A stretch of 64,000 nt of DNA from positions 151,858-215,857 of the forward strand of contig CAZXND010000001.1 of assembly GCA_964641355.1 (NCBI GenBank). Reading direction: 5' to 3'. Positions 6,905 to 64,000 of this stretch are shown here, piece by piece; within the stretch, counting starts at the first letter, position 1, and each line of letters opens with the position of its first letter. The DNA comes from an uncultured Gammaproteobacteria bacterium. GTDB taxonomy: Bacteria > Patescibacteriota > Microgenomatia > Levybacterales > GWA1-39-11. Position numbers and translations under genes: made by a program. A model generated the notes under the pieces. It saw nothing but the letters and a program-made list of their open reading frames with translations. It was not told the DNA's origin and did no database searches.

Positions 6905-6909
6905 AAGTA

Positions 6910-8412
6910 TTAATAGCTTCTTTCGTAAATATCGGTATCTCCCATTCTGTATTTTAGATTGTATCCCGAAACAAAATTTGCAAGATCAGAATTTTTTTTA
7001 GTAACAATTATGTACTTTGGTTTCTTTATACTTAAAGCTTTCTTTGTTTCATCAATAGCGTTTTTGTAAAAAGTGACGTGATAAGAAACCGCATACCTCC
7101 CAGGAGGAAGCTTGTTGGAAAGAGCATAGATTTGAGCACTATCACTCCAAAGAAAAATTTCATCATTTTTATTTGTATGTGTTTCTATAAATTTAACAAT
7201 GTCGTAATCACGTTTGGTATTCGGGTCAAAAAAATCAAGGTAACTATCAACAGATTTACTCTTAAAAACAAAGTCTAAATAGTTTCCGTAGTAACTGAAG
7301 GTTTTTGAGTAGTAGTGAAAATTTCTAAATATTATTAGGGTAGAAATTAATAAAATAACCATGTTAATCTTAATAAATTTTTTGTTGTCATATAAAAATC
7401 CGACCAACACAGATAGAGCTGGAATAAAAACAAGTACATAATGAGTGTAAGGACGCGCAGAAAAAAGAGTACTATACAATGAGAAGGTCACCCATAAATA
7501 CACGAATACCGCTGTCGTCCCTATCTTATGACTGTTTCTCAAAACAACAAAAATGATAATTATTAAAATTGCTGTTTTGAGAAATAAGAGTCCCATCGGG
7601 AATAAAAGAAAATTTCCGTAACCAACGTAACCAACATTCTGGGAAAATGCTGCTCTAAAATAGTCATTTATTGCTCCTCTGCCAAGAAAATAAAGAACAG
7701 TAATCATAGGCAAAAAGAACATAGATAAAACAAAATAGATCTCGGGTTTCAAGCTTGAAAGAAAGGCTTTAGGGTATGTTGTAATAAGTTTTAGTCTCCT
7801 TCTTGAGAAATTATTAGCATCTGACGTTGCAAAAAGACATAGCAAAAAAGCAATAAAATCAAATATTGCTACAGCTTTTATTAAAAATGACAATGACAAG
7901 AAAATTCCTGCATAGATTAAATATTTAATTTTTTTTCTGTCATCAATGAATTTAAAAATAAAAAACAGACTTAAAAGAGTTGGTAACACCATGAAGTTTT
8001 CTGAATTAGCAATATTTCCTTCATAAATGGGCGTTGCAAAAAACAGCGTAAAAACAATAGTAGAGATATAACTTGATCGCCTTGTTTTGAAAATTTTCCT
8101 TGATAGTATAAAGAAGATACAAGAAGCTAATATGCCAAAGACAAGAGAAACAAATCTAACGGAAAATTGATCACCATTAAAAATTGCATATATAATATAA
8201 AGAAGTGGAGGCTTATTATCCCAAATACCCTGATAGAGGAGTCTTCCTTGACGAAGTGCAATACCAATAACTTCATATATCCCTTCATCTCCATACCAAT
8301 AAGGCTCTATCAACGAAGGAATTCTTAAAACAAATAAGGACACAATAAAGACAAGAAACCAAGAATCACGATTGCCCTTCTCGTTTTTAAGAAGAGAAAA
8401 CAATTTTCTCAT
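6910..8412 (-). CDS. GT-C fold glycosyltransferase, PMT/ArnT-like (GT39/GT83 family)
   Basis: Polytopic protein with an N-terminal YWYGDEGIYEVIGIAL...WDNKPPLLYII loop typical of PMT_2/ArnT-family enzymes and a C-terminal soluble domain. Confidence 0.6.
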   Translation of the reverse strand: MRKLFSLLKNEKGNRDSWFLVFIVSLFVLRIPSLIEPYWYGDEGIYEVIGIALRQGRLLYQGIWDNKPPLLYIIYAIFNGDQFSVRFVSLVFGILASCIFFILSRKIFKTRRSSYISTIVFTLFFATPIYEGNIANSENFMVLPTLLSLFFIFKFIDDRKKIKYLIYAGIFLSLSFLIKAVAIFDFIAFLLCLFATSDANNFSRRRLKLITTYPKAFLSSLKPEIYFVLSMFFLPMITVLYFLGRGAINDYFRAAFSQNVGYVGYGNFLLFPMGLLFLKTAILIIIIFVVLRNSHKIGTTAVFVYLWVTFSLYSTLFSARPYTHYVLVFIPALSVLVGFLYDNKKFIKINMVILLISTLIIFRNFHYYSKTFSYYGNYLDFVFKSKSVDSYLDFFDPNTKRDYDIVKFIETHTNKNDEIFLWSDSAQIYALSNKLPPGRYAVSYHVTFYKNAIDETKKALSIKKPKYIIVTKKNSDLANFVSGYNLKYRMGDTDIYERSY

Positions 8413-49423: not shown

Positions 49424-49427
49424 TTTG

Positions 49428-49447
49428 CGAGCTCCGCTAGGAGCGAG
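49428..49447 (-). promoter_or_regulatory. Hairpin sequestering the nrdJ Shine-Dalgarno (GCUCC-uagc-GGAGC)
   Basis: In the mRNA sense, ...CUCGCUCCuagcGGAGCUCGCAAAAUG: GGAG lies 9 nt upstream of the AUG and forms the 3' strand of a 5-bp GC-rich stem. Confidence 0.25.
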
Positions 49448-49563
49448 TAAAATACCTGAAGTCTCTACTAAGGACGAAGTCCGCAGTAAGAGTTACAGGT
49501 ATAATATTTTATTAAACAATCTTTCTTTCAACTTCATTTCATTTATAAGCACAACTTTTAACT

Positions 49564-50010
49564 TTACTTTATCAATTTTTTCAGTTCTTTTTCAAAATCT
49601 TCTAAATCTACAAATCTCTTAAAAACGCTTGCAAATCTTATATAGGCGACTTTATCAATTTTTTTAAGCTTTGCAGCGACCATCTGTCCGATTTTTTTAC
49701 TGTCTATCTCGACTGTCTCTCCACCCCTAAGTTCCAATTCTATTTCTCCAACAATTCTATCTATATCGCTAAAAGACACATTAGTCTTTTCACATCCCTT
49801 AATAATTCCGCTTTTGAGCTTTTCGCGGTCGAATTGCTCTCGTCTACCATCTTGTTTTTTGACAATAAGAGTTACGTTTTCGATTCTTTCGTAGGTCGTG
49901 AACCTTTTCCCGCAAGAGGTACAAAGTCTTCTTCTTCTTATTACGTCGTTTTCACCAAGTCTTGTTTCAACGACTTCAGTTTCTGTATTTCTACAATAAG
50001 GACAATGCAT
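49564..50010 (-). CDS. nrdR: Transcriptional repressor NrdR
   Basis: MHCPYCRNTETEVVETR...RRRLCTSCGKRFTTYE zinc ribbon plus an ATP-cone; 148 aa. Located immediately upstream of nrdJ. Confidence 0.85.
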   Translation of the reverse strand: MHCPYCRNTETEVVETRLGENDVIRRRRLCTSCGKRFTTYERIENVTLIVKKQDGRREQFDREKLKSGIIKGCEKTNVSFSDIDRIVGEIELELRGGETVEIDSKKIGQMVAAKLKKIDKVAYIRFASVFKRFVDLEDFEKELKKLIK

Positions 50011-50096
50011 AAATTCAGTCTTTTGTAAATTCTCTTAAAAATATATAAATACTGAAGTCTTTATATATGTACCTCGTATCAGTTGTCAAACAAGTG

Positions 50097-50112
50097 CAAC
50101 TATATTTAGTGC
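50097..50112. promoter_or_regulatory. Candidate NrdR box (CAACTATATTTAGTGC) upstream of nrdR-nrdJ
   Basis: Matches the acaCwAtATaTwGtgt consensus at 12 of the core positions. It lies about 90 nt upstream of the nrdR start. Confidence 0.3.
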
Positions 50113-50278
50113 CAAAAAATATAGTAAGGCACTACATTTGACAAGTCAATATAAAACACAGTATCAAATACTATCAACTTTTATCGTGGGCTCAAAACAA
50201 TTTTTTTCTTACAAAAAATATATAAAAAAACCAGATGGATTTTTTGATGAGTAAGTCTTTTAACTAAGATCGAAGAGT

Positions 50279-50854
50279 TTATTTTGAGTGAGGGAAGAGA
50301 TTATTTACAGATTTTTCGAACTTTTTCATCCGCATAATTTCGTGTGTCAACGCCTTCTTATTTTTTCCACTCAACTTTTTTTCATAAGGAGAAATAATTT
50401 CTTGATGTTTTCTTATAGATTGCTTCATTTGCTCAAGAAGGGGCTGGATATCTTCATTCATTTTTTTCGCCTTCTCGATATTAACGATGGCATCATCAAA
50501 ATAATTATTACTCTTAGAAAGAGTGTCTATTGCTATATCGTTTTTATTTTTGTCAAAAAGGAAAGTCGCAGCATTTGCTCTTTTATCTGATGCAAGAAGA
50601 TCAAAACTAGCTTTTTTAAGAGAATCAGATATTAAAGTACTAACGATTTTATCTCGTAAAACTTTTAAATTATACAAAGGGTTTCCAGGAAGAAGTCCTG
50701 GATATGGCATGTTGTAATTGATCTTTTCAACTTTAGGAGTATCTGTTGATATACTCTCTTCTTCCATCATTAATTCCTGAGCATAAGTTTTTGTAGAAAG
50801 AGAAAGGATGGCAACTAATATTAATACAAGACATACAACTTTAAAAGATTTCAT
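50279..50854 (-). CDS. Hypothetical secreted alpha-helical protein
   Basis: ATG at 50854 gives MKSFKVVCLVLILVAILSLSTKTYAQE, a signal peptide. 191 aa with no motifs. The track's TTG start at 50872 was rejected. Confidence 0.35.
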   Translation of the reverse strand: MKSFKVVCLVLILVAILSLSTKTYAQELMMEEESISTDTPKVEKINYNMPYPGLLPGNPLYNLKVLRDKIVSTLISDSLKKASFDLLASDKRANAATFLFDKNKNDIAIDTLSKSNNYFDDAIVNIEKAKKMNEDIQPLLEQMKQSIRKHQEIISPYEKKLSGKNKKALTHEIMRMKKFEKSVNNLFPHSK

Positions 50855-50938
50855 GAGGAAATGATAGATCAAATAGCTTCTATTGTCAACTCAGGTAGAA
50901 TTGACTTTTTAAATGATTTTAAGTCATACTAAATAAAG

Positions 50939-52558
50939 ATGAACCTTCTATCCAAGCTTTCTTTATCTCGTATAACTACATATTATATAGTAGCTCTTCT
51001 TTTCTTTGTATTTTTCTCTCTTCTTCCATCTCAAGCTCTTGCACAATCCCCACTCAACATAAATACACAAGAGGGTGTAGAGAATAACATCCACACATAC
51101 TCACAAATTGCAATGATTGAAGTTTTAAGAAGTGCATCATGCTTCTTAACAGGCAAAGACCCTCTTGCGGTTAAAGCACAATGTATAGGAGTTAATCCCA
51201 TCTCAGGCAAATATGGGTACATTAATCAAGAAAACAATGGAATGATCGGAGTTATGGGTAATTTAATGTCTATGACATTCAACATTCCAATCAGCACCGG
51301 CCAATATTCATCTTATCTTGCAAATGATTTTGGTATAGCAAAAAAGACTTATGCTCAGGGACCTGGATTTCCTGGTCTTGCACCTGTTCTTAACCTTTGG
51401 AAAACTTTTAGAAATATTTCATACTTACTGTTTGTACTCATATTTATCGCTCTTGGTCTTGGAATAATGTTTCGAGTCAAAGTTGATCCGCGTACAGTTA
51501 TGACCGTACAAAATCAAATTCCCAAAATTATTATCGCGTTGGTTCTCGTAAGTCTTTCGTATGCGATTGTTGGATTTCTGATAGATCTAATGTTTGGGTT
51601 CATTTATCTTGAGTTTAATATGATCGGATCATCAACCCCAGATATTCAAACCAATATTTTTTCTTTTGTTAATAATACTATTGACCTTGAAGGAGGAGGA
51701 ATTTTTGGAACAATGATGCTTTCCTCTCTATCAGTTGGGAAGATTATAGCTTCTTCCTTTAATAATCTTTTTGCAGAACTAGGAAGCTCTCTTCTGGGAA
51801 CTGCTACAAAAGCAATTGGAGTGCTTTTAATACCTGTGACCTTTGGTGCGTCAGGAATTCCAGCAGGTTGTGACATCGCAGGAAAAATAGGAATTGGACC
51901 AGTAAGTATAAGAGATATTCCATTTATTTCTTCTGGTTGTGATGCAGTTGATAATCTTCCTCAAATAATAATCGGGGCGATAACAACAATTCTGGCATTT
52001 TTGGTTATAGCGATTGCAGTACTCTGGGCATTATTTAGAACATGGTTTATGCTTATCAGAGCTTTTGTCTATATTCTTATAGATACTCTTTTTGCTCCTC
52101 TTTGGATATCTGTTGGAATTTTGCCAGGTGCATCAGGTCTTGGATTTGAAAAATGGATAAGGCATTTGATGGCAAACATTTCTGTTTTTCCTGTAGTCGT
52201 TGGAATGTACTTAATAGCCAATTCACTAATCCACTCATTTGGCGGCGCCAATAGTTTTACACCTCCTCTAGTTGGGAACCCAAGTCAATCAGATGCAATA
52301 GGAGCGCTTATTGCTCTTGGATTTATTCTTTCCACTCCACAAGCTATATCAACAACAAGAAACGCCTTTAAAGCACCCGACTTTAAGCTCGTCGCACTCA
52401 AAACAGCGCTTGGAGTTGGGGTTGGAGGACCAAGAAGAGTTGTAAGCGGAGGACTAGGATACGTATACAGTCCGAAGCACGATCCAAAATCAGGAACCGT
52501 TATTTATCCTGCTGGTCCTATTGGAAAAGGGTTGAGAGCGCTTGGGATTATTCGCTAG
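50939..52558 (+). CDS. Polytopic membrane protein with N-terminal secreted domain; candidate VirB6/TrbL-like channel subunit
   Basis: Signal peptide, extracytoplasmic domain of about 130 aa, then at least 6 TM helices. Assigned by architecture and genomic context (same locus as the PrgI-like and VirB4-like genes), not by motif. Confidence 0.3.
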   Translation: MNLLSKLSLSRITTYYIVALLFFVFFSLLPSQALAQSPLNINTQEGVENNIHTYSQIAMIEVLRSASCFLTGKDPLAVKAQCIGVNPISGKYGYINQENNGMIGVMGNLMSMTFNIPISTGQYSSYLANDFGIAKKTYAQGPGFPGLAPVLNLWKTFRNISYLLFVLIFIALGLGIMFRVKVDPRTVMTVQNQIPKIIIALVLVSLSYAIVGFLIDLMFGFIYLEFNMIGSSTPDIQTNIFSFVNNTIDLEGGGIFGTMMLSSLSVGKIIASSFNNLFAELGSSLLGTATKAIGVLLIPVTFGASGIPAGCDIAGKIGIGPVSIRDIPFISSGCDAVDNLPQIIIGAITTILAFLVIAIAVLWALFRTWFMLIRAFVYILIDTLFAPLWISVGILPGASGLGFEKWIRHLMANISVFPVVVGMYLIANSLIHSFGGANSFTPPLVGNPSQSDAIGALIALGFILSTPQAISTTRNAFKAPDFKLVALKTALGVGVGGPRRVVSGGLGYVYSPKHDPKSGTVIYPAGPIGKGLRALGIIR

Positions 52559-55500
52559 CTTGAAGTAAGGTTCTTAAGATCGAGTACCACTGTTGTTTCA
52601 ATCATCGCAATAATTATTAACGCAAGAATACCTCTTGCGGAATAGAGCTTAAGTCGTCCATTTTTATCCACTTCAAGAATTGATTCTAAATCCCTAAATT
52701 GCTTCTCAGCATTATGCGTTCTCTCTTCAATCAACTTTCTCTGCTCCTCATCAGATAGAAGTTTTTCTTCATCGCTTAATTCTCCGACGCTATTTGCAAG
52801 CTTAATTCTAATATGGTCTAACTTTTCTCGCAAATCATCTCTTGTTAGAGATGCAGCCTGAGGACCGTAAATTTCCTCGAGTCTTGAAGTTGCTCTTCTA
52901 AAAGGTTTGTCTATTCCAAAAACATCCCAGAAAAATCCTTTTTTCGCCACTTCAAAAAGAGTACCAACCGTGTGTCTAACTGATTTTGCCCTACCCCCTT
53001 GTCCCAGATATTGACTGGCTGATTCTGCAAATTCCATCGCAGATTTGACACGCTCATCAATACCTTCTGATTTAAGAAAAGCAGTAAGCGCTGAGCCGGC
53101 CTTCATTGCGTTTGATATATCATTCATGTTTCTAACCAAAGCATCTGCGCCCCTATCTTTAGACCAAATACTTGAAAGCATTTTCAAGCCAGACCCTTCT
53201 GGACCTTCTTCAAGATCTTTTATAGAAATGTCATCTACCCTAAGAGTTCTTGTATAGATGTCATCAAATTCTTTTCCCCATGAAAGTTTTTTAATTTTTT
53301 CCGAAGTAACGAAACCCTGCATAGAAGAAAACATTTTTTCAAGTTTTTCTGCCTCTTCTTCGCTTCTTAAAAATTTCACCAAAGCACTCCTTTGCATGGG
53401 AGTTAGATGTGCAAAGTCAATTTGCTCTGGTACTCCTTCATTAAATTTTCCATTTAAAGCATCTTCTCTCATCTTGCTTATTATTGCTCCATACTCTTGT
53501 TTGAAACCATCAAATTTATTCTGTGCCTTAAATGCTTTCACTTTCCTTTTTAGCGAGTCTAACTCTTCCCTTCCAAGGGAGAGCGCTTTGCTTGATAGCT
53601 TTTCTAAATTTTCATCATCAAAATAGGATTTAAAAAATTCGAATTCTTTTTTGTCTGTTCCGTCGTATTTTATTTCTACAAAGGGCGAGGACGGATCAAG
53701 AAGAAGCTCTTGAAAATCAGAATCACTAGGAGCTTTATCTCTAAAAAGTCTTATCACTTCTTCGGTTCTAAATTTTCTAATTTTTTTCCAAATGTCTTCT
53801 AGCTCACTGAGCTTTGATTCTTTGTCTTTTGGATTTCTTGTAGCTCCTTTCAACTGCATAAAAAGCCCAAAATTATTAGCCTCTTTTACTGTCTCTTTGA
53901 ATCTACTTACATCTGACATCCTACCACTCAACTCAAATTCCTTTAATCTTTCCTCGATAAGATCATATGCCTCGCCTTCGCTTATTATTCCGAGCTTAGT
54001 CGCCACTTTATATTCAAAAAACTCTCTGTGCCTCTCTCGAATACCAAGAATTCTCCAACCAGAAGAATAAAAATCAGCTACTGCAAATAGGTCCTTAAAA
54101 AGTTTAGAACCTGCTCTTTCAGCTTCTAAATCATTCTCGTATTTAATTCCCAACTCACTAGCTCTTTCATAAGCCATTCTAAGCTTCATCTCTCTTAGAA
54201 ACTCTCTATCCTCAGCATTAAGAATGTTAAATTTTCCAGTGAGGAATTCTTCATAGTTAAAGATATTGAAAGCAGCACCTGGATCAGAATAGATGGCTAG
54301 AAGGCCCGGTGCATGTTCACCACGAGAAGCAATAACTATTTCTCTTTGCGAATCAACCAAAATGTCATAGGCCGTTCTAATAGACCTCTCTACTTTTTTT
54401 CTAGCACGGTCTAAATCTAATAAATTCCCTTTCTCATCTTTAAACTCATAAACACCAGCTTCAACCATCTTCATTTGTTCTTCGATAAGATCTTCATTGA
54501 CTCTTGTAACAGTCTCAGAATATAAATGCTGCTCGAATCCTCCTTGTCTTAATCTCTCATCTTCAAGCTTGTCGGCTATTCTAAAATACATGGCTTGAGT
54601 AAAACCGTCTTCAAAACTAAGTGCCTTAAACATCCCATGAGATTGAAGTCTTGAGGCTGCACCTTGGATTTGCTCAATTGATCTTGATTCAACGTTAACC
54701 CGCATAAATAACGAGTTTATAAGAATATTGTATCGCTCAGAAAATTCGGTAAGAACTTTTGTTCCATCAGCTCTATTTCCAATAGTAATTTCAAGATATC
54801 TAGTCGCTTCTCCAAAAGCTCTTTGGAGAGTCTCAAAAACAGGAGACTCTAATTCATTTCCTCTTCTTGCTGTATCATAAAATAGATCAAACTTCTCACT
54901 TAACCATCCCTGAGGATCAATGTCCAACTGTTCCATATCCTCAGACTGAATTGTAAAAAAGTTTCTTCTTTCTCTATCCTGTGAATGACTCAAGCGTTTT
55001 TCTATTGCAGACTCTTGATCAGCTATGGACTTTAGAACCTGCGCCTTCTCAACTCCATTAACACCCTCCATTTCATCAACTCTTTTAAAAGCCGCCCTTA
55101 GTTCTTCCAACTGTCTCCCTACATTACCCTGAAAAATATCAAAATTACGATTAACCCTTCCTATTTCTGCAATAAGCGATAAGTCTTTTATACCCTTATT
55201 ACCAATCGCATCTGCCCCACCCTCAACAGGTTTAACACCCATCTCTCCTAAAATTCTAGCGACCTGTCTTTCCTCTGAGGATATTACCTGGCCCCTACCT
55301 TCTCTTTCTTCAAAATGTTTCTGCCAATCGTTTGTCATGCTACTTATTTGAGGATTAGTTAAAAGTTCGCTGCCTCGACCTTGATAGGGTTTGCTTCTAA
55401 TCTCAGCTGCCCCTTTTCTAACATCAAGATTTATTTTTCCATCAAAAGAAGCTGGACTTCCTTCTTGTTTCGGTTCCATTCTACCTTCCAGTGTATAAGG

Positions 55501-55563
55501 GTTCACTCTTTGTGTCAACTCAGATTGATTTAAAAAGATTATTCTTTCTTTCATAGATCGCAT
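52555..55563 (-). CDS. Giant (1002 aa) alpha-helical/coiled-coil protein with single C-terminal TM helix (tail-anchored)
   Basis: No enzymatic motifs found. It is charged and Glu/Lys/Arg-rich. The only hydrophobic segment is C-terminal (GILALIIIAMIETTVVL). Its 5' end overlaps the VirB6-like gene by 4 nt on the opposite strand. Confidence 0.4.
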   Translation of the reverse strand: MRSMKERIIFLNQSELTQRVNPYTLEGRMEPKQEGSPASFDGKINLDVRKGAAEIRSKPYQGRGSELLTNPQISSMTNDWQKHFEEREGRGQVISSEERQVARILGEMGVKPVEGGADAIGNKGIKDLSLIAEIGRVNRNFDIFQGNVGRQLEELRAAFKRVDEMEGVNGVEKAQVLKSIADQESAIEKRLSHSQDRERRNFFTIQSEDMEQLDIDPQGWLSEKFDLFYDTARRGNELESPVFETLQRAFGEATRYLEITIGNRADGTKVLTEFSERYNILINSLFMRVNVESRSIEQIQGAASRLQSHGMFKALSFEDGFTQAMYFRIADKLEDERLRQGGFEQHLYSETVTRVNEDLIEEQMKMVEAGVYEFKDEKGNLLDLDRARKKVERSIRTAYDILVDSQREIVIASRGEHAPGLLAIYSDPGAAFNIFNYEEFLTGKFNILNAEDREFLREMKLRMAYERASELGIKYENDLEAERAGSKLFKDLFAVADFYSSGWRILGIRERHREFFEYKVATKLGIISEGEAYDLIEERLKEFELSGRMSDVSRFKETVKEANNFGLFMQLKGATRNPKDKESKLSELEDIWKKIRKFRTEEVIRLFRDKAPSDSDFQELLLDPSSPFVEIKYDGTDKKEFEFFKSYFDDENLEKLSSKALSLGREELDSLKRKVKAFKAQNKFDGFKQEYGAIISKMREDALNGKFNEGVPEQIDFAHLTPMQRSALVKFLRSEEEAEKLEKMFSSMQGFVTSEKIKKLSWGKEFDDIYTRTLRVDDISIKDLEEGPEGSGLKMLSSIWSKDRGADALVRNMNDISNAMKAGSALTAFLKSEGIDERVKSAMEFAESASQYLGQGGRAKSVRHTVGTLFEVAKKGFFWDVFGIDKPFRRATSRLEEIYGPQAASLTRDDLREKLDHIRIKLANSVGELSDEEKLLSDEEQRKLIEERTHNAEKQFRDLESILEVDKNGRLKLYSARGILALIIIAMIETTVVLDLKNLTSS

Positions 55564-55654: not shown

Positions 55655-56980
55655 ATGAAACAAAACGAAGCCTCTCATTTTGAATCCCTCTATCCTGCCG
55701 AAACCCGAGAGAAAGAAATTGGCGAAATCATTGGGTTTGTAAAAAAGGGCTTATCTTCACAACTAATTGGTCTTCCAGGAAGTGGGAAAAGCAATGTTTT
55801 AAATCTTTTAACATACAACAGAAAAGTGCGAACTCTTCATTTAGGAAACGCGCAAAATAAATACCATTTCGTATACATGGATTTTTCCGAAATTAAAGGT
55901 CGAAATAATTTTGAAGTTATTAAATTTATTCTAATTTCACTCGCCTATTCACTTTCTGAAAGAAGAATGAATAAAGAATATGGAGAGATAAATAAATATT
56001 TAAAAGAAGCAATTTCATTTAATGATGAGCTCATTCTTTTCCAAGCGCTTAAAAAAAGCATTGATTTTCTAGCAAACGAATTAGACCTTACCGTAATCCT
56101 TCTACTGGACAGGTTTGATCAATATTTTTACGATGTATCAGATTCCTTTTTTCTTAATTTAAAAATTCTAAGAAATAGGGCGAAGTATAAATTTTCTACC
56201 GTTTTCTCACTTTCACGCTCAATACAAGAACTCCTAGAAGAAGACGTTTATTCTGAATTTTCTGAATTTTTTTCTCAAAACAAGGTCTTTCTTAGTCTTT
56301 TTGACAAAATAGGCATAGCATTTAGACTTTCATATCTTGATAAAACCACTAATAAAAAAACAAGTGAAATGACAAAAAAAGAACTTCTAAGAATAACATC
56401 CGGACATGGAAAATTGACTCGAGTAGGATACGAACTTTTACTTTCTGAAAAAGAAATATCCGACATTGAAAACTTTTTAGAACAAAAAGACATTATTAAA
56501 AAAGTCTGTTATGAAATTTGGGATACTCTTACCCCTGCCGAACAAAATATTTTAATAAAAATTTCAAAAAAAGAAGATATAAAAATCCCAAATTATTTTG
56601 AAGAAATAGAACTTATAAAAAACGGGGAAATATATATTCCAATTTTTGAAAAATTTCTAAGCAAAGTAAAATTCAAAAACGAATTAATAGTTTATGATGA
56701 AGGAAAAAATGAGATACTTAAAGGTCAAGATAATTTAACAGATGTTTTAACTCCGCTAGAATTTAGAGTCTTAAGATTTTTAATTATAAATAAAGATAGA
56801 ACTTGCGAAAAAGAGGAAATTATTAACTCTGTATGGAAAGACTCAAAAACACAAGAAGGAGTTAGCGACCAAGCCTTAGATCAAATCGCTTATAGACTTA
56901 GAAAAAAGATTGAGAATGACCCCAACAATCCAAATTACATTTTAACTATCAAGGGTCGTGGTTTTAAATTTAATCCTTAA
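55655..56980 (+). CDS. P-loop NTPase fused to C-terminal OmpR/PhoB-type winged-helix DNA-binding domain (putative locus regulator)
   Basis: N-terminal Walker A LIGLPGSGKSNVLNLL in an AAA/STAND-like domain of about 250 aa. The C-terminal 100 aa match the trans_reg_C pattern (LTPLEFRVLRFLIINKDRTCEKEEIINSVW...SDQALDQIAYRLRKKIE...ILTIKGRGFKF). Confidence 0.55.
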   Translation: MKQNEASHFESLYPAETREKEIGEIIGFVKKGLSSQLIGLPGSGKSNVLNLLTYNRKVRTLHLGNAQNKYHFVYMDFSEIKGRNNFEVIKFILISLAYSLSERRMNKEYGEINKYLKEAISFNDELILFQALKKSIDFLANELDLTVILLLDRFDQYFYDVSDSFFLNLKILRNRAKYKFSTVFSLSRSIQELLEEDVYSEFSEFFSQNKVFLSLFDKIGIAFRLSYLDKTTNKKTSEMTKKELLRITSGHGKLTRVGYELLLSEKEISDIENFLEQKDIIKKVCYEIWDTLTPAEQNILIKISKKEDIKIPNYFEEIELIKNGEIYIPIFEKFLSKVKFKNELIVYDEGKNEILKGQDNLTDVLTPLEFRVLRFLIINKDRTCEKEEIINSVWKDSKTQEGVSDQALDQIAYRLRKKIENDPNNPNYILTIKGRGFKFNP

Positions 56981-56982
56981 GC

Positions 56983-58353
56983 TTGTATTTTAAATTTAGA
57001 TTCGGTTATGATTTAAGAGTGAGAAAATTCCTTCTTCTAATAATAATTCTAATTACTTTTTTTTCTATATCAAAGATTTCCTTTGCACAAGAACAAAAAA
57101 CCCCATCTTCTACTCCTGCTGCTTCTGATCCAAACGGTTACGGAGCAATTATTACTAGCCCATCGAATCCGGACGACATAGTTGAAGGGCACAAGATTAT
57201 AACTGTAAAATTCACAATCCCATCATCAGAAATTGGAAATGAATTTTTACTTTGTCAGGAAGCAGATTGCGGTGAAACTCACGACAAATTAAATAATGGA
57301 ATCGCAGACTCAAAACCCACTACGGCAAGTTTTGATATTAAAGTATGTGGAGCAGAAGCTGGAGTTTTACAAACCAATAATTGCGAAAACAGTGGCTCTG
57401 ATCTTTACGGTGGAATGATGTACTATCTTACATTGGTAAAACATGAAAGAGAATCAACTGGGCAAGTAACAACCTCGGAATCATTCACTCCTGTTGCGAG
57501 TGTCAGTTTTTATGTTAAAAGAATCTATCCAAATGTTGATTTAACTTCTGAAAACGAAAACAAACCGCGTATTGGATCGAAGCCTATCTTACATTTCAGC
57601 CAAAACGAATTTCCAGTACCAGAAGATGCCCTTACTGATACTTATACGTATAAAGTTCAAGTTTTTAAAATTGGAGCAAGTGATGAAGAGTATGACTATC
57701 AAGAAGAAGTAGAACTAAATGAAAATAATAAGTCTGATGACCTCAAAATAACTACAAACGGGGAGACCGGAGGTGGCCTCCCGGAAGGAAATTACATTGT
57801 AAAAATTTTCCGTAAATCCTCCCCCTTCACTGATTCTGCAAATACAGTAGTCGGGGGAGATGGTTTTCTAATGTACACAATCGATTTTAGCGTCACGAAT
57901 AATGGGGGAAAGATAGGAGTAAAGAAGAAAGACCCAGAAGGGAAAGATAATAGACTTTTTGCTGCAGGAGATCAGCTCAGTCCGACCCCTCCTCCACTTC
58001 CCTGCTTGGAAGGGTGGAAAGACGATCAAAAAACTATAATATCTCAGGATCCTAAAGAAATAAAATATTGTACGAAAGTTGGTACAGCGCTGGGAAGTCT
58101 TGAGGTAATGCCTCTTGGATTAATATCAAATCTTCTAAGATGGTTCCTTGGTATTGCCGGATCCGCTTCGCTTATTATCTTTCTTTATGCAGGATATGTA
58201 TTAATGACATCAGCTGGAAACAAGGAAAAGGTTCAGGGGGCACGTGAAACAATAACCTCAGCCATTGTTGGACTGATATTTATCATTTTTTCTGTAGCAA
58301 TTCTTGAATTTATCGGCGTTGATATCTTGCAAATTCCAGGACTTGGAAAATAG
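56983..58353 (+). CDS. Secreted Cys-containing 330-aa domain fused via Pro-rich linker to a C-terminal VirB2/TrbC-like two-TM pilin module (candidate tip adhesin/minor pilin)
   Basis: Signal peptide, a soluble domain with 6 Cys, a SPTPPPLP linker, then ...LISNLLRWFLGIAGSASLIIFLYAGYVLMTSAGNKEKVQGARETITSAIVGLIFIIF..., which is homologous to the three downstream small proteins. Confidence 0.45.
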   Translation: MYFKFRFGYDLRVRKFLLLIIILITFFSISKISFAQEQKTPSSTPAASDPNGYGAIITSPSNPDDIVEGHKIITVKFTIPSSEIGNEFLLCQEADCGETHDKLNNGIADSKPTTASFDIKVCGAEAGVLQTNNCENSGSDLYGGMMYYLTLVKHERESTGQVTTSESFTPVASVSFYVKRIYPNVDLTSENENKPRIGSKPILHFSQNEFPVPEDALTDTYTYKVQVFKIGASDEEYDYQEEVELNENNKSDDLKITTNGETGGGLPEGNYIVKIFRKSSPFTDSANTVVGGDGFLMYTIDFSVTNNGGKIGVKKKDPEGKDNRLFAAGDQLSPTPPPLPCLEGWKDDQKTIISQDPKEIKYCTKVGTALGSLEVMPLGLISNLLRWFLGIAGSASLIIFLYAGYVLMTSAGNKEKVQGARETITSAIVGLIFIIFSVAILEFIGVDILQIPGLGK

Positions 58354-58356
58354 CCA

Positions 58357-58701
58357 ATGAAAGATTTATTAGCTCTGACAGTACAAAACCCAAGCGGAGT
58401 AATCGAAAAATTGAGTCCTCCTCCCGAAATAATCAGTGGGCCGGGCACAACAAATACAATAGTGAGATTTGGTCTTAATCTTCTTGTTGTTACTGGAATT
58501 ACCGCATCTCTTATCTATATGCTTCTTGCCGGAATTAAATGGATAACTTCTGGCGGAGACAAACAGAAGATCGAAGAGGCAAGGAAGGGAATTACATATT
58601 CAATAGTTGGAATTATTATTATTTCTTTGTCTTTTGTAATCATACATTTAATAGGAGAAATATTAGGCGTACAGCTTCTCTCAAGGTTTGGTGTTAAATA
58701 A
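58357..58701 (+). CDS. Two-TM pilin-like protein (VirB2/TrbC-like topology), paralog 1
   Basis: 114 aa: ...NTIVRFGLNLLVVTGITASLIYMLLAGIKWITSGGDKQKIEEARKGITYSIVGIIIISLSF... Hydrophobic helix, conserved charged loop, hydrophobic helix. Confidence 0.45.
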   Translation: MKDLLALTVQNPSGVIEKLSPPPEIISGPGTTNTIVRFGLNLLVVTGITASLIYMLLAGIKWITSGGDKQKIEEARKGITYSIVGIIIISLSFVIIHLIGEILGVQLLSRFGVK

Positions 58702-58713
58702 AAAGTTGCACTA

Positions 58714-58742
58714 TTGACAAACTTTTTAGAACATGCTCTAAT
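58714..58742 (+). promoter_or_regulatory. Sigma-70-like promoter (TTGACA-17-TCTAAT) upstream of the signal-peptide-bearing pilin paralog
   Basis: A perfect -35 hexamer with 17-bp spacing to an A/T-rich -10, about 10 nt upstream of the ATG at 58752. Confidence 0.3.
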
Positions 58743-58751
58743 AAATTAGAT

Positions 58752-59189
58752 ATGAAAAAATCACTTAACTTAAAAAAGGCAATAATTCCCTTATCGGCTT
58801 TTGCTTTACTTGCAGTTGCGACTCCAGCATTTGCTGCCACCCAACAACAAGTGATTGACTTAAGTCCTGTTAATGGAGTTGTTCCTAGTAGTGCTGTTCA
58901 AGTAAGTGACGTTATAAGATTTATTATCAATTTACTTGTAGTCATCGCTGTAATTGCTTCTCTTGTATACCTTATTTACGGAGGACTTCGATGGGTAATT
59001 TCAGGTGGGGACAAAGAGAAAGTTGAAGCAGCAAGAAAAACAGTAGTTGCTGCAATTATCGGCTTGGTCGTTGTTCTTCTCTCATGGGTTATAATCACAG
59101 TTGTGATGCAAATCGTAACTGGAAAGGCGCTTAATAATTTCACTCTTCCTACACTACAATCTCCAAACACACAAACTAAACCTCAATAA
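58752..59189 (+). CDS. Two-TM pilin-like protein with cleavable signal peptide (candidate major pilin), paralog 2
   Basis: 145 aa. Signal peptide MKKSLNLKKAIIPLSAFALLAVATPAFA|A, then ...SDVIRFIINLLVVIAVIASLVYLIYGGLRWVISGGDKEKVEAARKTVVAAIIGLVVVLLSW... About 60% identical to paralog 1 across the core. Confidence 0.5.
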   Translation: MKKSLNLKKAIIPLSAFALLAVATPAFAATQQQVIDLSPVNGVVPSSAVQVSDVIRFIINLLVVIAVIASLVYLIYGGLRWVISGGDKEKVEAARKTVVAAIIGLVVVLLSWVIITVVMQIVTGKALNNFTLPTLQSPNTQTKPQ

Positions 59190-59228
59190 CCTCCTTTTAC
59201 TTTCTCAAAATTTTTATATAATAAAATA

Positions 59229-59558
59229 ATGAATAGTCTCAATACTAGCAACTGGAACTCGTGCATCGACAGTGCTTATGGTGTTCCACAACTTACATGC
59301 CTTTGGGTAATTTTGAGTAATATCCTTAACGCCTTCCTTACTTTATCAGGACTTGTAGCATTATTCTTAATAATCTATTCTGGGATAAAATTTATAATGT
59401 CGCGCGGAGATAAAGAAAAAATCGAAGGAGCAAGAAAAACTTTTATTTTTGCTATTATCGGGCTCGTTTTTATTCTATTATCTTTTTATATTTTAGTATT
59501 TATAGGACAACTAACAGGAATTAAAATCGATAAGTTAATAACCCCGCCACAAAGATAA
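59229..59558 (+). CDS. Two-TM pilin-like protein, paralog 3
   Basis: 109 aa: ...LSNILNAFLTLSGLVALFLIIYSGIKFIMSRGDKEKIEGARKTFIFAIIGLVFILLSF..., the same conserved core. Confidence 0.45.
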   Translation: MNSLNTSNWNSCIDSAYGVPQLTCLWVILSNILNAFLTLSGLVALFLIIYSGIKFIMSRGDKEKIEGARKTFIFAIIGLVFILLSFYILVFIGQLTGIKIDKLITPPQR

Positions 59559-59560
59559 CT

Positions 59561-61339
59561 TTAAGAAGTAATTCCTCCTATAATTGCCGCTGCTTGTCCA
59601 ACTCCCCCAAGAGCTGCAAAAGCCAGGAGGAAGATTAGAGCTTTACCTTTTTTTGTACTTCCAAAGGCTTTTAATCTTTTTAGTAGCTCGACTTTTTCTT
59701 TTGTTGTTTCTTTTGAAACTCCCATTTCTTTATCAATCATTTCTCCTTTTTTAAGAAGCTCGTTAAACAGTTCTTCTCCGAATTCAGGATTGTTTACTAA
59801 TTTAGTAGCGTCTTCATTGCTTATTCCCACAATCATTCCCCGAGAAAGAATTTCAGTCTTAACACTTTCGCGAAGATTACTCGCAAATTCTGGATCATTA
59901 GCAATTCTCTCTTTGATTTCGACTGCTCTTACCTCTTTTCTAGCCTCAAACTGCATATCCGTCTCTCCTTCATTCTTAACCAAACTATCCTTCGCAAGTC
60001 TTACAATCATAGCGTCATTACCATTCTCTATTAAGTATTTTGTGTACTCTTGAACCTTTTTCCTATCAAACTCAACCTTAATTTGTTTTCCTACTACTTT
60101 TTTAACTTCTGTTGTTTGGATTTGTTTTAAAATGTCTTTTTTGTCGTTATCTTTTTCAGCAGCAATTTCTCTTGTGGTAATCTGATTAAGAGCTTCTATT
60201 CTCGCTTGTGCATCTTGAGCAAGTTGCATTTCTGCTTTAACCGTAATAATACCCTTTGCAGTCTCAATCATTTTCACATCTTGCGCTGCCTTTTCTTTCT
60301 CAGTAGTGTTAAAAGCATCTTCTGCTTTTGTCTCCTGCTCTTTTAGTGCTTCCAGTTCTTCACTTAATCTTTCTTCTTCCTCTTCAAGAGTTTTGATTTT
60401 TCCAGGTAGGCCCTCTTTTTCTGATTTTAACTGAAGATATCTTTGACGTTTCTCACGAGCTTGTCCGAAGGATAGATATTCCTTTTCTTCATTAGAAAGA
60501 CTGCTTGGATCAATTGCATTTTTTGCTTTTGCCGCAGCGATTGACGTCAATATCTGGTCAGGTCTCGCTTTTGCACCATACATTTCAAAAAAAGCAACTT
60601 CTATCGGCCTGTCATAAATTTCAAAATCCTTCACTCCTGAACTTTCAAGGTTAGAAAGCTCTCCTGCAATAGTAAGGTTTCCACTTGCATCGGCAAGTTG
60701 TCCATTAAATTCTTCCTGCCTACTTTTCGCCTGAGCCAAATCTTTAGAACTATTTTCTCTTTCCCCTTCTTTCCTTTCACGATCTTTCTTGGCCTTATCA
60801 AATTCTTTTCTAGTCATAACAAGCTTTGCCTCAATCTCACTCGGTCCAAAACCTTGCTCAAGAACTTTTTTTATCTCTTCCTGAAGATTCTTATTGCCCA
60901 AAACGAATTTTGCGACCTCTCTTGTCTCATCCTCACTCAATCCACCAAACACCTCTTCGTTAGCTTGAAACCTAGCGGTAACCTGATCTAGTATTTTATC
61001 TTGATTTGTTCTATCGATATTAGCAAACCCTTTTTCAGCAATTTCTTGGGCTAACTGTAAATTCTCTTTTGCCTCTTGGTATTCTTGTACGCGATCCCCC
61101 GGAGGACTTCCCAGTCTATCTTCGAATCTCTCTTGAGCGTTGAAATCTAAGTTATTTTCTTGTTGAGCAAATTTTTTTAGTATATCTTCTGCATTTTGAT
61201 TTTTCGCTAATTCTTCCCTAATTCTTTGTCCCATATCACGATTTGTCTGCTGCTCAGGAGTAAGATGTGCCCCTGGTGCTACCGGCTTTCTTTCAGTCAT
61301 TGATCTAACCGCAATTTCTGCTTTATTGATGTCCGCCAT
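59561..61339 (-). CDS. 592-aa highly charged coiled-coil protein with single C-terminal TM helix (tail-anchored)
   Basis: Glu/Lys-rich with no enzymatic motifs. The C-terminal segment ALIFLLAFAALGGVGQAAAIIGGITS is the only hydrophobic region. Confidence 0.4.
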   Translation of the reverse strand: MADINKAEIAVRSMTERKPVAPGAHLTPEQQTNRDMGQRIREELAKNQNAEDILKKFAQQENNLDFNAQERFEDRLGSPPGDRVQEYQEAKENLQLAQEIAEKGFANIDRTNQDKILDQVTARFQANEEVFGGLSEDETREVAKFVLGNKNLQEEIKKVLEQGFGPSEIEAKLVMTRKEFDKAKKDRERKEGERENSSKDLAQAKSRQEEFNGQLADASGNLTIAGELSNLESSGVKDFEIYDRPIEVAFFEMYGAKARPDQILTSIAAAKAKNAIDPSSLSNEEKEYLSFGQAREKRQRYLQLKSEKEGLPGKIKTLEEEEERLSEELEALKEQETKAEDAFNTTEKEKAAQDVKMIETAKGIITVKAEMQLAQDAQARIEALNQITTREIAAEKDNDKKDILKQIQTTEVKKVVGKQIKVEFDRKKVQEYTKYLIENGNDAMIVRLAKDSLVKNEGETDMQFEARKEVRAVEIKERIANDPEFASNLRESVKTEILSRGMIVGISNEDATKLVNNPEFGEELFNELLKKGEMIDKEMGVSKETTKEKVELLKRLKAFGSTKKGKALIFLLAFAALGGVGQAAAIIGGITS

Positions 61340-61679
61340 TGCTTATTTTTATCTCCTCTCTCACTATATTTAGCGCCTCATCTATTTTTCCTTCTTTTGC
61401 GAGTTCGCTTGCGGCCTCAGCCACTTCCTCATCTTTTTTTTCCTGAACCTCTCCACTCTCCACAACCAAAAGATAAGAAAAGACAGACCATTTTGATGAT
61501 AATACGCGAAGAAAATTGATAAGCTCCTCGTGTGTATTTACTTTTTCCATCTCCTTAACTATGAATGAAGAAAGAGAGGGGACTTCTTTTGATGGGATCA
61601 TATCCTGCTCAAGAGCATCTGCTATCAACTCCACTATTTTTTTTGCAACTTCCCTTTTATGCTCTGGCGTTAAATCCAT
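61323..61679 (-). CDS. Hypothetical small acidic soluble protein, translationally coupled to the 592-aa gene
   Basis: 118 aa; it overlaps the downstream gene start by 17 nt. Confidence 0.3.
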   Translation of the reverse strand: MDLTPEHKREVAKKIVELIADALEQDMIPSKEVPSLSSFIVKEMEKVNTHEELINFLRVLSSKWSVFSYLLVVESGEVQEKKDEEVAEAASELAKEGKIDEALNIVREEIKISNGGHQ

Positions 61680-61884: not shown

Positions 61885-63051
61885 GTGTATTTCTCGCCCA
61901 GAAAGGCTCGTAATATGGAAATGGAGAATCATCCGATTCCCCTTGATGTTACAGGATTTAAATTTAGACTGATAGGAAGCATGACTGTTAAGCAGTTTTT
62001 GTATCTTTTGGCTTCTGGAATACTTGTATCGCTTACACTTCTTCTTCCCTGGCCACTTTTAATAAGAGTTCCAATGATTACTTTTTTCTCTTTGGTTGGA
62101 TTTAGTCTGGCTTTTATTCCAATCGATGGAAGACCCATGGATAAAATGATTGCTAGCTTTGCAAAACACGTTCTGTTTACAGAAGACTTGTGGGTTTATC
62201 GAAAAAAAGGAGCAAATATTGCTTCTTATGAAATCTTCCAAGAACCCAAAGTTGAAACAAAACCCGCTCCACAAGAACCATCCCAACCAAGTATACGCAC
62301 TTTTGCTATTAAAAAACCTCACGTAAAACTCGAGCAAGAAGAACTCGATTTTTTGAAAAGAGTACGAGGGTTTTTCTCAGAATCAGCCGTTCAACAACAA
62401 CCAGTTATAAATTCTACAACTTCTTCTCCCCATCCAACGCAAACAGAAGGAGAAGAAGCCTTGAAAATCCGCACTGAGATTCAACAAATTAAAAATCGTG
62501 TGGAAGTTGAAGGTCCAACAGAAGAATTAAAAAAAAGACTTACAGAACTCGAAGCAAGACTTAGCAATATTCTCGCTCAAAATATTGCCCTTCAAAATAA
62601 AGTATTTGAATTTCAAAGACAAATTCCAGACAAGGCTTACCAGGTGGAAGGCAAACCTACTATAACACCTAACGCAAGACTAGTAGACAGCGCAAGTCAA
62701 GTTAAGGCTGGCTTTCCAATGCTTCCTGATATCCCAAACGTGATACTTGGAATAGTAAAAGATCCCAGAGGTAGGATTTTACCTGGAATTATAGTCGAAG
62801 TGGTAGATCAAAATAATATTCCAGTGCGTGCTTTTAAAACAAATAAATTAGGACAATTTGCTGCCGCAACACCTCTTCCAAATGGAAAATATAAAATAAT
62901 TTTTGAAGATCCTCAAAAAAACAACGAGTTTGAAACAATCGAGATAGACCTTAATGGACAAATTTTTCAACCGCTTGAGGTTATTTCAATTGATCAAAGA
63001 GAGAGACTTAGACAAGAGCTCTTTGGTAAGACAAATTCGTTACAAAACTAA
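61885..63051 (+). CDS. PrgI/VirB3-like T4SS membrane protein fused to coiled-coil and C-terminal beta-sandwich (CarboxypepD_reg-like) domain
   Basis: The N-terminal 110 aa (PLDVTGFKFRLIGSMTVKQFLYLLASGILVSLTLLLPWPLL...FSLAFIPIDGRPMDKMIASF) match the PrgI-family pattern (..tfrQllYLl.. hairpin of two TM helices). The VirB4-like gene follows immediately. The C-terminus has VILGIVKDPRGRILPGIIVEVVDQNNIPV...GKYKIIFEDP. The start may be at M11/M13. Confidence 0.5.
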   Translation: MYFSPRKARNMEMENHPIPLDVTGFKFRLIGSMTVKQFLYLLASGILVSLTLLLPWPLLIRVPMITFFSLVGFSLAFIPIDGRPMDKMIASFAKHVLFTEDLWVYRKKGANIASYEIFQEPKVETKPAPQEPSQPSIRTFAIKKPHVKLEQEELDFLKRVRGFFSESAVQQQPVINSTTSSPHPTQTEGEEALKIRTEIQQIKNRVEVEGPTEELKKRLTELEARLSNILAQNIALQNKVFEFQRQIPDKAYQVEGKPTITPNARLVDSASQVKAGFPMLPDIPNVILGIVKDPRGRILPGIIVEVVDQNNIPVRAFKTNKLGQFAAATPLPNGKYKIIFEDPQKNNEFETIEIDLNGQIFQPLEVISIDQRERLRQELFGKTNSLQN

Positions 63052-63052
63052 T

Positions 63053-63685
63053 ATGTCAAAGAGGAAAATTTCATCAACAACACAGGACTTTACAGAACTA
63101 ATAGACATAATCGATGGAATCGCTTTTTTCAAAAATAGGAATTCAGCTCTTGTTGTTGAAGTTTCATCAGTTAATTTTTCACTGCTCTCCCCCGATGAGC
63201 AGAACTCAAGGATCTATGGCTACATGAGTCTTTTAAATTCTCTTTCTTTTCCAATCCAAGTCCTAGTAGTAAGTCAGAAAATAAATATGTCTTCCTATGT
63301 AAAAACATTAGATCAAAGAATCACAAGTTCACAAAACTCAAGAATTTCAAAACACTTAGTCGAATATAAAAACTTTATAAAAGAGCTCACAAAAACGGAA
63401 GGACTTCTTGACAAAACGATCTATGTAGTTATTCCACTCACCCCTCTTGAGCTTGGAATATCAAACGTTGCAAAAGAGATAAAAAAACAAGCCGAGTTTG
63501 TAGAAACAACTAGAAAAACACTTAATAGTCGGGCAGCAAGCGTTATTAACCAACTACAAAGACTAGGTCTTACAGCAAAAGTACTCAACTCAGACGATTT
63601 AGCAAGACTTTACCATAATATTTATAACCAAGAATCGATAAATATAGAGTATGAGTCACAGGATTTAAAGAATGTGATTTTATAA
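63053..63685 (+). pseudogene. VirB4/TraE-like T4SS ATPase, N-terminal 210-aa segment (ORF terminated by TAA; continues in another frame)
   Basis: STTQDFTELIDIIDGIAFFKNRNSALVVEVSSVNFSLLSPDEQNSRIYGYMSLLNSLSFPIQVLVVSQ follows the N-terminal-domain pattern of Gram-positive VirB4 homologues (..DG.i.....g.f...y.l..iNF.l...dEqe.i...y...LNs.....Q.....). The start at 63053 was chosen because its first codon abuts the stop of the PrgI-like gene. Confidence 0.5.
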
Positions 63686-63689
63686 AAAT

Positions 63690-64000
63690 ATGTTTGGAAA
63701 AAAGAAACAAGCAACTCCACCTCAACCCAAAATCTCTCCGTCTATGTCTGCTTTAAAAAGCGGATCGATATCACTTGTAGATTTAATCGCCCCCTCATCG
63801 GTTGAAGTAGATTTTAAATTCGTTAGGATCGGGGATAGTTTTTTTAGAACCTTCTTCGTTGCAGATTATCCAAGAGTCGTGTCTCCAGGCTGGCTTTCAA
63901 GCCTTATCGACTTTAAGGAATCAATGAATATCTCCATGTTTATTTACCCAGTTCAAAGCTCAGACGTTTTATCTAACCTCCGAAGAAAAATTGCCGAGAT
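63690..64000 (+). CDS. VirB4/TraE-like T4SS ATPase, continuation (+1 frame), truncated by window end
   Basis: MFGKKKQATPPQPKISPSMSALKSGSISLVDLIAPSSVEVDFKFVRIGDSFFRTFFVADYPRVVSPGWLSSLIDFKESMNISMFIYPV matches the conserved ..DLIAP.....f...G..y.Rt.fi..yP..l...wl block of Gram-positive VirB4 homologues, at the expected distance from the N-terminal segment. Confidence 0.5.
   Translation, partial: MFGKKKQATPPQPKISPSMSALKSGSISLVDLIAPSSVEVDFKFVRIGDSFFRTFFVADYPRVVSPGWLSSLIDFKESMNISMFIYPVQSSDVLSNLRRKIAE

Follow-up and report, generated by a model that had tools for sequence, protein, structure and literature searches.

The 64,000-nucleotide stretch of DNA analysed here (the window) comes from contig CAZXND010000001.1, positions 151,858 to 215,857, of assembly GCA_964641355.1, which is deposited as an uncultured Gammaproteobacteria bacterium and is placed by GTDB in the Patescibacteriota, ultra-small bacteria of the CPR (Microgenomatia; Levybacterales; GWA1-39-11). 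It carries a type IV secretion system (T4SS) locus with four pilin genes in a row on the + strand, and the first of these, pil1, is the subject of this study. It encodes a long pilin in which a soluble ectodomain is joined to a VirB2-like pilin module, and comparison with a nearly identical strain indicates that the part of the gene coding for the ectodomain has been swapped as a cassette. The open reading frame (ORF) is uninterrupted from 56983 to 58353 and gives 456 amino acids when counted from a TTG codon. Residue numbers throughout refer to this 456-residue numbering, with TTG 56983 as residue 1; the probable coding sequence, discussed below, is 57019-58353 (444 amino acids). An identical protein on record, P0001, is encoded on a 242,876-bp contig.

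From the N- to the C-terminus the protein consists of a hydrophobic, signal-peptide-like segment ending SFA before QEQ, a soluble part of about 300 residues, a linker with the motif SPTPPPLP, and two long hydrophobic helices, and hydropathy analysis places the hydrophobic segments at residues 9-37, 384-409 and 420-454. The Sec-type signal peptide (57019-57087, MRKFLLLIIILITFFSISKISFA) reads M-RK-FLLLIIILITFFSISKISFA followed by QEQ. Its cleavage is predicted after A35, since small residues occupy the -3 and -1 positions, and the AlphaFold2 model gives the signal-peptide helix as residues 11-29. The flexible linker (57931-58068) has low values of the predicted local distance difference test (pLDDT) at residues 325-361; it holds SPTPPPLP (residues 333-340, nucleotides 57979-58002) and C341 (codon 58003-58005), and the codon of C363 (58069-58071) lies just past it. 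All 24 of the 24 homologs have both C341 and C363, which probably close a juxtamembrane Cys loop. The other four of the six cysteines, C91, C96, C122 and C134, are in the ectodomain. An earlier interpretation made from the DNA letters and their translations (the sequence-only reading) had described a signal peptide, a soluble domain with six cysteines and a Pro-rich linker to a C-terminal pilin module with two transmembrane segments, and all of these parts were found.

The pilin module occupies 58111-58326, with helix 1 at 58111-58209 and helix 2 at 58222-58326 (residues 377-409 and 414-448 in the AlphaFold2 model) joined by the short basic loop SAGNKEK. Residues 380-443 (58120-58311) match PF18895 (T4SS_pilin) at 30.9 bits, where the gathering score is 26.6, and the precomputed annotation of P0001 is likewise PF18895. 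The three traits tested for PF18895 membership are all present: a hidden Markov model score above the gathering score, two helices with a basic loop, and T4SS core genes alongside. The similarity to short pilins persists under profile alignment, which the sequence-only reading had named as the point on which the pilin assignment could fail: the constant region of 25 long pilins aligned to 16 short pilins with an hhalign probability of 99.5% (E 2.9e-23). The connection of pil1 to the canonical TrbC/VirB2 family (the pilins of F, RP4, Ti and R388, which polymerise with phospholipid into a five-start helical pilus) is sub-threshold only by sequence. PF04956 (TrbC/VirB2) has no match in pil1; elsewhere it matches pil3 below threshold (E 0.0057) and one long pilin of alignment A2 (E 3.3e-4), and in P0047 it is present together with PF18895. 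When a constant-region profile was searched against PDB sequences, no solved pilin was found, the best match (E 0.4) being noise. Single-sequence genome scans returned 5 and 10 loci. A word-index search with the 96-residue constant region returned 21 candidates, all of them short, and is uninformative on family size.

The ectodomain has no family match in Pfam or NCBIfam, and an exhaustive phmmer search with the ectodomain alone against 1.84 billion representatives returned 6 proteins at E ≤ 0.001. By these searches it belongs to a very narrow family with no annotated relative. The sequence-only reading had seen no recognisable fold, which stands for sequence profiles and not for structure. 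AlphaFold2, run with a 24-homolog alignment, places two beta-sandwiches behind the signal-peptide helix, then a linker that is disordered, a short hairpin and the two helices of the module, with the sandwiches at residues ~54-180 and ~184-316 and pLDDT of 80-90. A model of the ectodomain alone (pLDDT 83.9, predicted template-modelling score 0.81) again contains two confident beta-sandwiches. The first domain, D1 (57142-57522), carries C91, C96, C122 and C134; the second, D2 (57532-57930), is the most divergent part. The ectodomain is thus predicted to be a tandem of FN3/Ig-like beta-sandwiches, and an enzyme fold is absent from the prediction.

Cysteine columns are conserved in 22-24 of the 24 homologs, and where cysteines are missing they are missing in pairs: the window protein lacks the equivalents of residues 242 and 290 in D2, a pair that the other homologs keep, and P0017 lacks 91 and 96. 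Because the cysteines are conserved and lost in pairs, these patterns argue for predicted disulfides 91-96 and 242-290, which leaves 122-134 and 341-363 as the remaining two, a pairing that derives from conservation and paired loss and not from model distances. The residues of the ectodomain that are invariant besides the cysteines are aromatic, Gly, Pro and a single Asp.

Among the 24 alignable homologs the mean pairwise identity is 32% for D1, 29% for D2 and 38% for the linker versus 66% for the pilin module. Twenty further long pilins (335-607 amino acids) have the same module and ectodomains that cannot be aligned; many are rich in cysteine, and a single one has an fn3 match. Two of these that were checked, P0037 and P0006, occupy the same syntenic slot as pil1. 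Across this slot the pilin ranges from 131 to 626 amino acids. Further loci contain ORFs of 131, 227, 381, 406 and 503 amino acids whose module is of the pil1 type. The longest of these, at L013 4753-6264, contains 50 cysteines and is followed by a second long pilin at 6268-7566 (432 amino acids, 14 Cys); the shortest, at L016 4890-5285, is a "naked" pil1 that has no ectodomain and only the juxtamembrane Cys loop. Since lengths and ectodomains in the pil1 slot vary on a module that is kept, the ectodomain is an optional, replaceable payload.

How one ectodomain gives way to another can be seen by comparing the window with L008, a contig from a different sample and of nearly the same strain. 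Nucleotide identity is 100% over 56804-57029, falls to about 45-65% in a variable cassette at 57030-58063, and returns to 99-100% over 58066-58360. Codons 36-340 of pil1 encode sequences with about 40% amino acid identity, a nonsynonymous divergence (dN) of 0.58 and a synonymous divergence (dS) of about 2, which is saturated, while the pilin module is an identical protein with dS 0.014. Around the cassette the nucleotide identity is 100% for the 3' end of the regulator gene, 99.4% for pil2, 96.0% for pil4, 96.7% for the gene of a 592-residue protein (59561-61339) and 100% for that of a 118-residue protein (61323-61679), and dS in these flanking genes is 0-0.07. Because synonymous sites are saturated inside the cassette only, this pattern indicates that the ectodomain cassette was swapped for an old, divergent allele by recombination and did not arise by rapid point mutation. 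For pil3 (58752-59189) compared with L008 1937-2371, dS is 0.33, above the 0-0.07 of its neighbours, an excess that suggests a second, smaller recombination patch in the pilin array.

A second pair of loci, L001 and L009, has a uniform dS of about 0.8; dN/dS is 0.03 for the linker and pilin module, 0.06 for the regulator and 0.11 for the ectodomain. Constraint on the ectodomain is therefore relaxed three- to four-fold in this pair and is still purifying. A test for diversifying selection on the ectodomain relative to the pilin module had been proposed by the sequence-only reading; the ectodomain is indeed far more variable (about 30% against 66% identity), and the mechanism is recombinational exchange and not elevated dN/dS. 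We reject positive selection by point mutation on both comparisons, the saturated dS of the cassette and the dN/dS of 0.11 in L001/L009. The window allele recurs unchanged in four other samples, and assemblies from three of these break inside the cassette (L027 ends at 57056; L029, L030 and L031 start at 57923, 57975 and 57962), which is compatible with strain heterogeneity or with low coverage.

Two other sources of variation were considered and rejected. A store of silent cassettes was sought in the 64-kb window with every one of the 44 long pilins as a tblastn query, and outside 56983-59558 the window contains no ectodomain or pilin copies. The pil1 locus is also not the target of a diversity-generating retroelement, as the divergence spans ~1030 nucleotides with saturated synonymous change. 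A tblastn search of the window for bAvd-like genes gave no match. Small four-helix-bundle genes (23S_rRNA_IVP, some bAvd) do sit beside or inside the arrays of relatives (L002 6190-6567 and 13827-14207, L005 9193-9576, L007 9153-9923 in its 5' part, and L010 6273-6653), and the L005 copy lies between pil1 and pil2. No reverse transcriptase was seen in these loci of relatives; for the window itself, no scan with a profile of reverse transcriptases was made.

The left border of the cassette lies close to the start of the gene, where the start codon is probably to be reassigned. Upstream of pil1 is a regulator gene (55655-56980, + strand) with an OmpR-type winged helix (Trans_reg_C, E 3.4e-18) and a weak P-loop match (AAA_22, E 0.011). 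Its stop codon is at 56978-56980 and is followed by two bases and TTG 56983, so the earlier statement that the start of pil1 abuts this stop is literally correct for the maximal ORF. TTG 56983, however, supplies the first half of a -35-like hexamer in a recurring promoter-like element (56983-57021): TTGTAT at 56983-56988, an 18-nucleotide spacer, TATGAT at 57007-57012, six nucleotides, and GTG at 57019-57021. The pattern CTTGnnT-N18-TAyGAT-N6-(A/G)TG precedes the orthologous gene in identical register in 7 of 10 syntenic loci and with a shift of 2-5 nucleotides in 3 more. In the window and in L001, L007, L010, L011, L012 and L013 the layout ends exactly at the pil1 start codon. This layout is kept although the sequence around it has diverged, and it occurs once in the window against 0.06 expected. 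A generic promoter scan had missed it because TTGTAT agrees with TTGACA at only 3 of 6 positions.

The pil1 start is therefore more likely GTG 57019, and the true protein probably has 444 residues; from this codon the N-terminus reads MRKFLLL, a textbook Sec signal peptide. The in-frame YDxRV(K/R)(K/R) that precedes the signal peptides of many homologs is the translated -10 box plus start codon, and several database homologs, with a translated YDxRVKK, are apparently annotated too long at the N-terminus. The conserved motif may be a sigma-70-type promoter with a transcription start that coincides with the start codon, which would give a leaderless pil1 mRNA. The regulator adjoins pil1 in all syntenic loci and lies on the opposite strand in L007. 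Co-transcription with the regulator, suggested by the sequence-only reading, was not supported and is rejected as a necessary feature, given the conserved motif that ends at GTG and the orientation in L007. Since no + strand terminator was found between the two genes, there may be some read-through from the regulator into pil1.

Directly after pil1 come three short pilin genes on the + strand: pil2 (58357-58701; 114 amino acids; PF18895, 29.4 bits), which lacks a signal peptide and has a positional ortholog in all syntenic loci; pil3 (58752-59189; 145 amino acids; 39 bits), which has a signal peptide and a TLPTL tail; and pil4 (59229-59558; 109 amino acids; 37.7 bits), with a Cys pair in its N-terminal tail. 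Orthologs of pil3 and pil4 were also found. The pilin modules cluster by position into four orthologous classes, with scores of 121-216 within and 88-140 between classes, and the pil1 module is the best conserved of the four (57% versus 51-53% mean identity). Because the four pilins cluster by position and carry class hallmarks, the set suggests a hetero-oligomeric assembly with fixed roles and not a collection of antigenic variants. Small Cys-rich C-terminal tails were seen on some pilins of related genomes: P0008 (a pil1), L002 9806-10282 (a pil2) and L005 9600-10052 (a pil2). The tail GGGFCDPxxCTxGNPIGSCGxGVxCC is common to P0008 and a pil2. Both pilin termini can therefore bear extra modules, which is consistent with both being extracellular.

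The pilin array is embedded in a gene order whose core is common to eight related contigs (L001, L002, L003, L005, L007, L008, L010 and L026), with some elements absent or outside view in individual contigs. In its fullest form the order begins with NrdR, DUF5667, a polytopic protein of ~520-575 residues, a minus-strand protein of ~900-1140 residues, the winged helix-turn-helix regulator, the long pilin and the three short pilins. It continues with a protein of ~580-690 residues that is coiled-coil-like by composition, one of ~115-160 residues, a PrgI-CarboxypepD_reg-like fusion, a TraC-like protein and the VirB4 ATPase; most syntenic contigs run on into PrgI, the TraC-like gene and VirB4. In the window the polytopic protein (50939-52558, + strand, 539 amino acids) has no Pfam or NCBIfam match and 41-47% identity to its syntenic counterparts; by position only, it is a VirB6-like candidate. 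Three minus-strand genes with conserved synteny and no Pfam match encode proteins of 1002 (52555-55563), 592 (59561-61339) and 118 (61323-61679) residues, the first two with a hydrophobic C-terminal segment. These three and the 539-residue protein are presumably unrecognised T4SS components.

To the right, Pfam and NCBIfam scans identified on the + strand a PrgI/VirB3-like protein fused to a CarboxypepD_reg-like domain (61885-63051) and a TraC-like/TrsD-like protein (62954-63685), followed by the start of VirB4 (from ATG ~63691 to 64000), which is cut by the window end and is present as a full ATPase gene at this position in relatives. The C-terminal CarboxypepD_reg-like beta-sandwich of the PrgI protein scores E 5.6e-6, below the Pfam cut-off, and the same combination occurs in L001, L002, L003 and L007. 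Directly upstream of the T4SS block, at 46949-50872, are a ribonucleotide reductase (TSCPD domain), NrdR and a DUF5667 protein, neighbours that are shared with L001, L002, L003 (DUF5667 only) and L010, and the T4SS therefore appears to be chromosomal and stably placed and not on a mobile element. In one locus, L003, dnaN is close to the block. No relaxase gene was found among the locus genes examined.

Loci of this type have been described by Quinonero-Coronel et al. 2025 (PMC12102498) as Patescibacterial T4SSs whose arrays comprise 2-11 VirB2-like genes and are reported above all from Microgenomatia and Saccharimonadia; such an array is essential in one Saccharibacterium (PMC10633639). What the arrays do is not known, and for Patescibacteria it is stated that "no adhesins, such as PrgB, were detected" (PMC12102498; PMC12857230). 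The pil1 locus resembles the published arrays, including that of Southlakia epibionticum ML1 (PMC12102498; Wang et al. 2023, PMC10633639), in the Pfam family PF18895, in the kind of locus (PrgI/VirB3-like, TraC-like, VirB4) and in the tandem divergent pilin genes beside the T4SS. It differs from them in several respects. The published pilins are small and sequence-variable and come with no adhesin, whereas here the first member bears an ectodomain of ~300 residues, predicted to be a tandem of beta-sandwiches; the pilins form four fixed orthologous classes instead of interchangeable variants; and the ectodomain is an exchangeable cassette. In the literature searched we found no description of ectodomain-bearing (modular) VirB2-like pilins, of a fixed four-class set or of cassette exchange.

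On balance we lean towards reading pil1 as a modular VirB2-like T4SS pilin that displays a swappable recognition domain. In the canonical system VirB2 is kept in the membrane until VirB4 extracts it by way of VirB3/VirB6 for polymerisation, with VirB5 at the tip (PMC12624023). For pil1, the Sec signal peptide would be cleaved and the protein would be inserted so that its ectodomain faces outwards and the basic loop SAGNKEK lies on the cytoplasmic side. The conserved hairpin would then be handled by the T4SS (VirB3/PrgI, VirB4 and the VirB6-like protein) together with pil2-4, pil1 being one member of the fixed four-pilin set. The disulfide-stabilised tandem sandwiches would be shown on a Pro-rich tether of ~45 residues, either at the cell surface or on a pilus or conduit, where the displayed ectodomain may act as a recognition or contact module. 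Whole ectodomain alleles would be exchanged within populations by recombination between arms that lie to the left (promoter and regulator gene) and to the right (pilin module) of the cassette, a function that we assign to them because both are conserved. Patescibacterial loci of this kind lack VirB5 and PrgB-type adhesins (PMC12102498; PMC12857230), which makes pil1 the obvious candidate for the contact element, and we propose it as a candidate for the exposed host-contact subunit of the Patescibacterial T4SS. That pil1 caps the tip of a filament, one of the two roles that the sequence-only reading gave it as a minor pilin (the other was to decorate the filament), is in our view doubtful; a tip cap, a decoration of the shaft and a membrane-anchored role fit the data equally well.

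Several observations weigh against a recognition pilin. No experiment or structure establishes Patescibacterial VirB2-like proteins as filament formers, and the naked 131-residue pilin in the same slot (L016) implies that the module does something even where no ectodomain is attached. Escape from phages or other enemies would account for the hypervariability of the exposed domain just as well as host recognition does. Two alleles only were observed in this species-level population, and the purifying regime of the L001/L009 ectodomain (dN/dS 0.11) gives no sign of pervasive positive selection.

In the likeliest of the alternatives pil1 would be a structural, possibly the major, pilin and not a tip cap, with its ectodomain coating the whole filament and varying as an escape from pilus-targeting phages or antagonists. 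The greater conservation of the pil1 module (57% versus 51-53%) fits such a role, as does the position of pil1 as the first gene, directly behind the promoter-like motif. The existence of a naked version at the same slot is what would be expected of a core structural subunit, and conserved polymerisation ends with a recombining middle are the classic flagellin pattern. The F pilus has five subunits per ~13 Å rise and a diameter of ~87 Å, and in a filament of that kind nearest neighbours would be spaced ~30 Å apart just outside the shaft, which may be marginally enough for radially projecting Ig domains on 45-residue tethers. Against a coat speak this marginal steric fit and the three other conserved pilin classes, which could form the shaft. 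We regard a coat of pil1 as unlikely.

A role without any filament seems to us less likely still. The hairpin would serve as a membrane anchor or T4SS docking element, and the sandwiches and tether would form a stalk spanning the wall and S-layer, a cell-surface adhesin or a component of a conduit through the wall. T4SSs of monoderms are generally without pili (PMC12102498; PMC12857230) and a pilus of these systems has never been seen; moreover, two Ig-like domains and a tether of ~45 residues would reach ~15-20 nm, comparable to the thickness of the envelope. The conservation of the hairpin nevertheless goes far beyond what a simple anchor needs, and its co-occurrence with exactly three conserved pilin classes suggests specific hetero-oligomeric packing.

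It is very improbable that pil1 is a pro-pilin, whose ectodomain would be a large pro-piece, or a passenger secreted along with the pilin, and would be cut off near C...C-T-x-x-x-TAxGxI to free a mature short pilin. VirB2, TrbC and TraA are all synthesised as precursors and then processed, a precedent that speaks for this possibility, and the conserved motif does stand immediately before helix 1. Pilins that have no ectodomain (L016, L021) contain this motif as well, hence it is a property of the module and not a mark of cleavage; there is no peptidase gene among the locus genes scanned, and a folded, disulfide-bonded domain whose alleles are swapped is unlikely as a throw-away piece. An enzymatic N-terminal domain, such as a peptidase that processes pilins or a hydrolase of the wall, is scarcely credible, as no Pfam or NCBIfam enzyme family matched, the structure prediction, on which the sequence-only reading had let this alternative depend, gave an all-beta FN3/Ig-like fold, and the invariant residues other than Cys would hardly make up a catalytic set.

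The recognition pilin that we favour has analogs in several unrelated systems. Its proposed role as an exposed contact subunit is shared with VirB5/TraC/TrwJ, the pilus-tip subunit of Gram-negative T4SSs, which is absent from Patescibacterial loci (PMC12857230). VirB5 is an all-helical pentamer unrelated to VirB2 (PMC12624023), whereas pil1 combines a predicted all-beta ectodomain with a VirB2 hairpin, so that it could be at most a functional analog. The modular type IV pilins PilB (adhesive) and PilC (glycan-binding) of Streptococcus sanguinis (PMC8179133) resemble pil1 in that a module is grafted on a polymerisation module and in being members of a multi-pilin set in a monoderm. They belong to another superfamily, the type 4 filaments, in which the pilin helix is N-terminal with a prepilin-peptidase (class III) signal and the adhesin is C-terminal; pil1 has a Sec signal with cleavage between SFA and Q, an N-terminal ectodomain and a C-terminal VirB2 hairpin, and is an analog and not a member.

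With flagellin (FliC), pil1 shares the juxtaposition of conserved polymerisation segments and a surface region that is replaced by recombination between similar strains. The protein and machinery are unrelated, and pil1 has a single polymerisation flank, at the C-terminus, its other arm being the promoter and the regulator gene. PrgB-type adhesins of Gram-positive conjugative T4SSs are also Ig-like surface proteins of a monoderm T4SS locus with a presumed role in cell contact. PrgB is anchored by sortase through LPXTG and is no pilin, whereas pil1 is anchored by its VirB2-like hairpin; its sequence contains no LPXTG motif and the Pfam scan gave no PrgB-related match.

A T4SS with a pilin array is essential in the only Patescibacterium that has been studied genetically, yet its function and the means of host contact are unknown, and surveys report no adhesin (PMC10633639; PMC12102498; PMC12857230). 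Against this background pil1 is a concrete candidate for host contact, and residues ~36-320 make up a defined, soluble, expressible domain for binding tests. The cassette allele is a genetic marker whose correlation with the identity of the host could be followed in metagenomes. The fixed set of four classes also changes how "variable pilin arrays" are read, favouring a hetero-oligomeric assembly over antigenic variants. As a tentative proposal, which we hold to be possible but not probable, a VirB2-family pilin may be the host-recognition subunit of the essential T4SS-like apparatus of Microgenomatia-type Patescibacteria, with its hairpin in a fixed four-pilin assembly and an exchangeable Ig-like ectodomain that sets which host cells are engaged, functionally replacing VirB5/PrgB. 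If this is true, ectodomain alleles would be host-range determinants kept by frequency-dependent selection.

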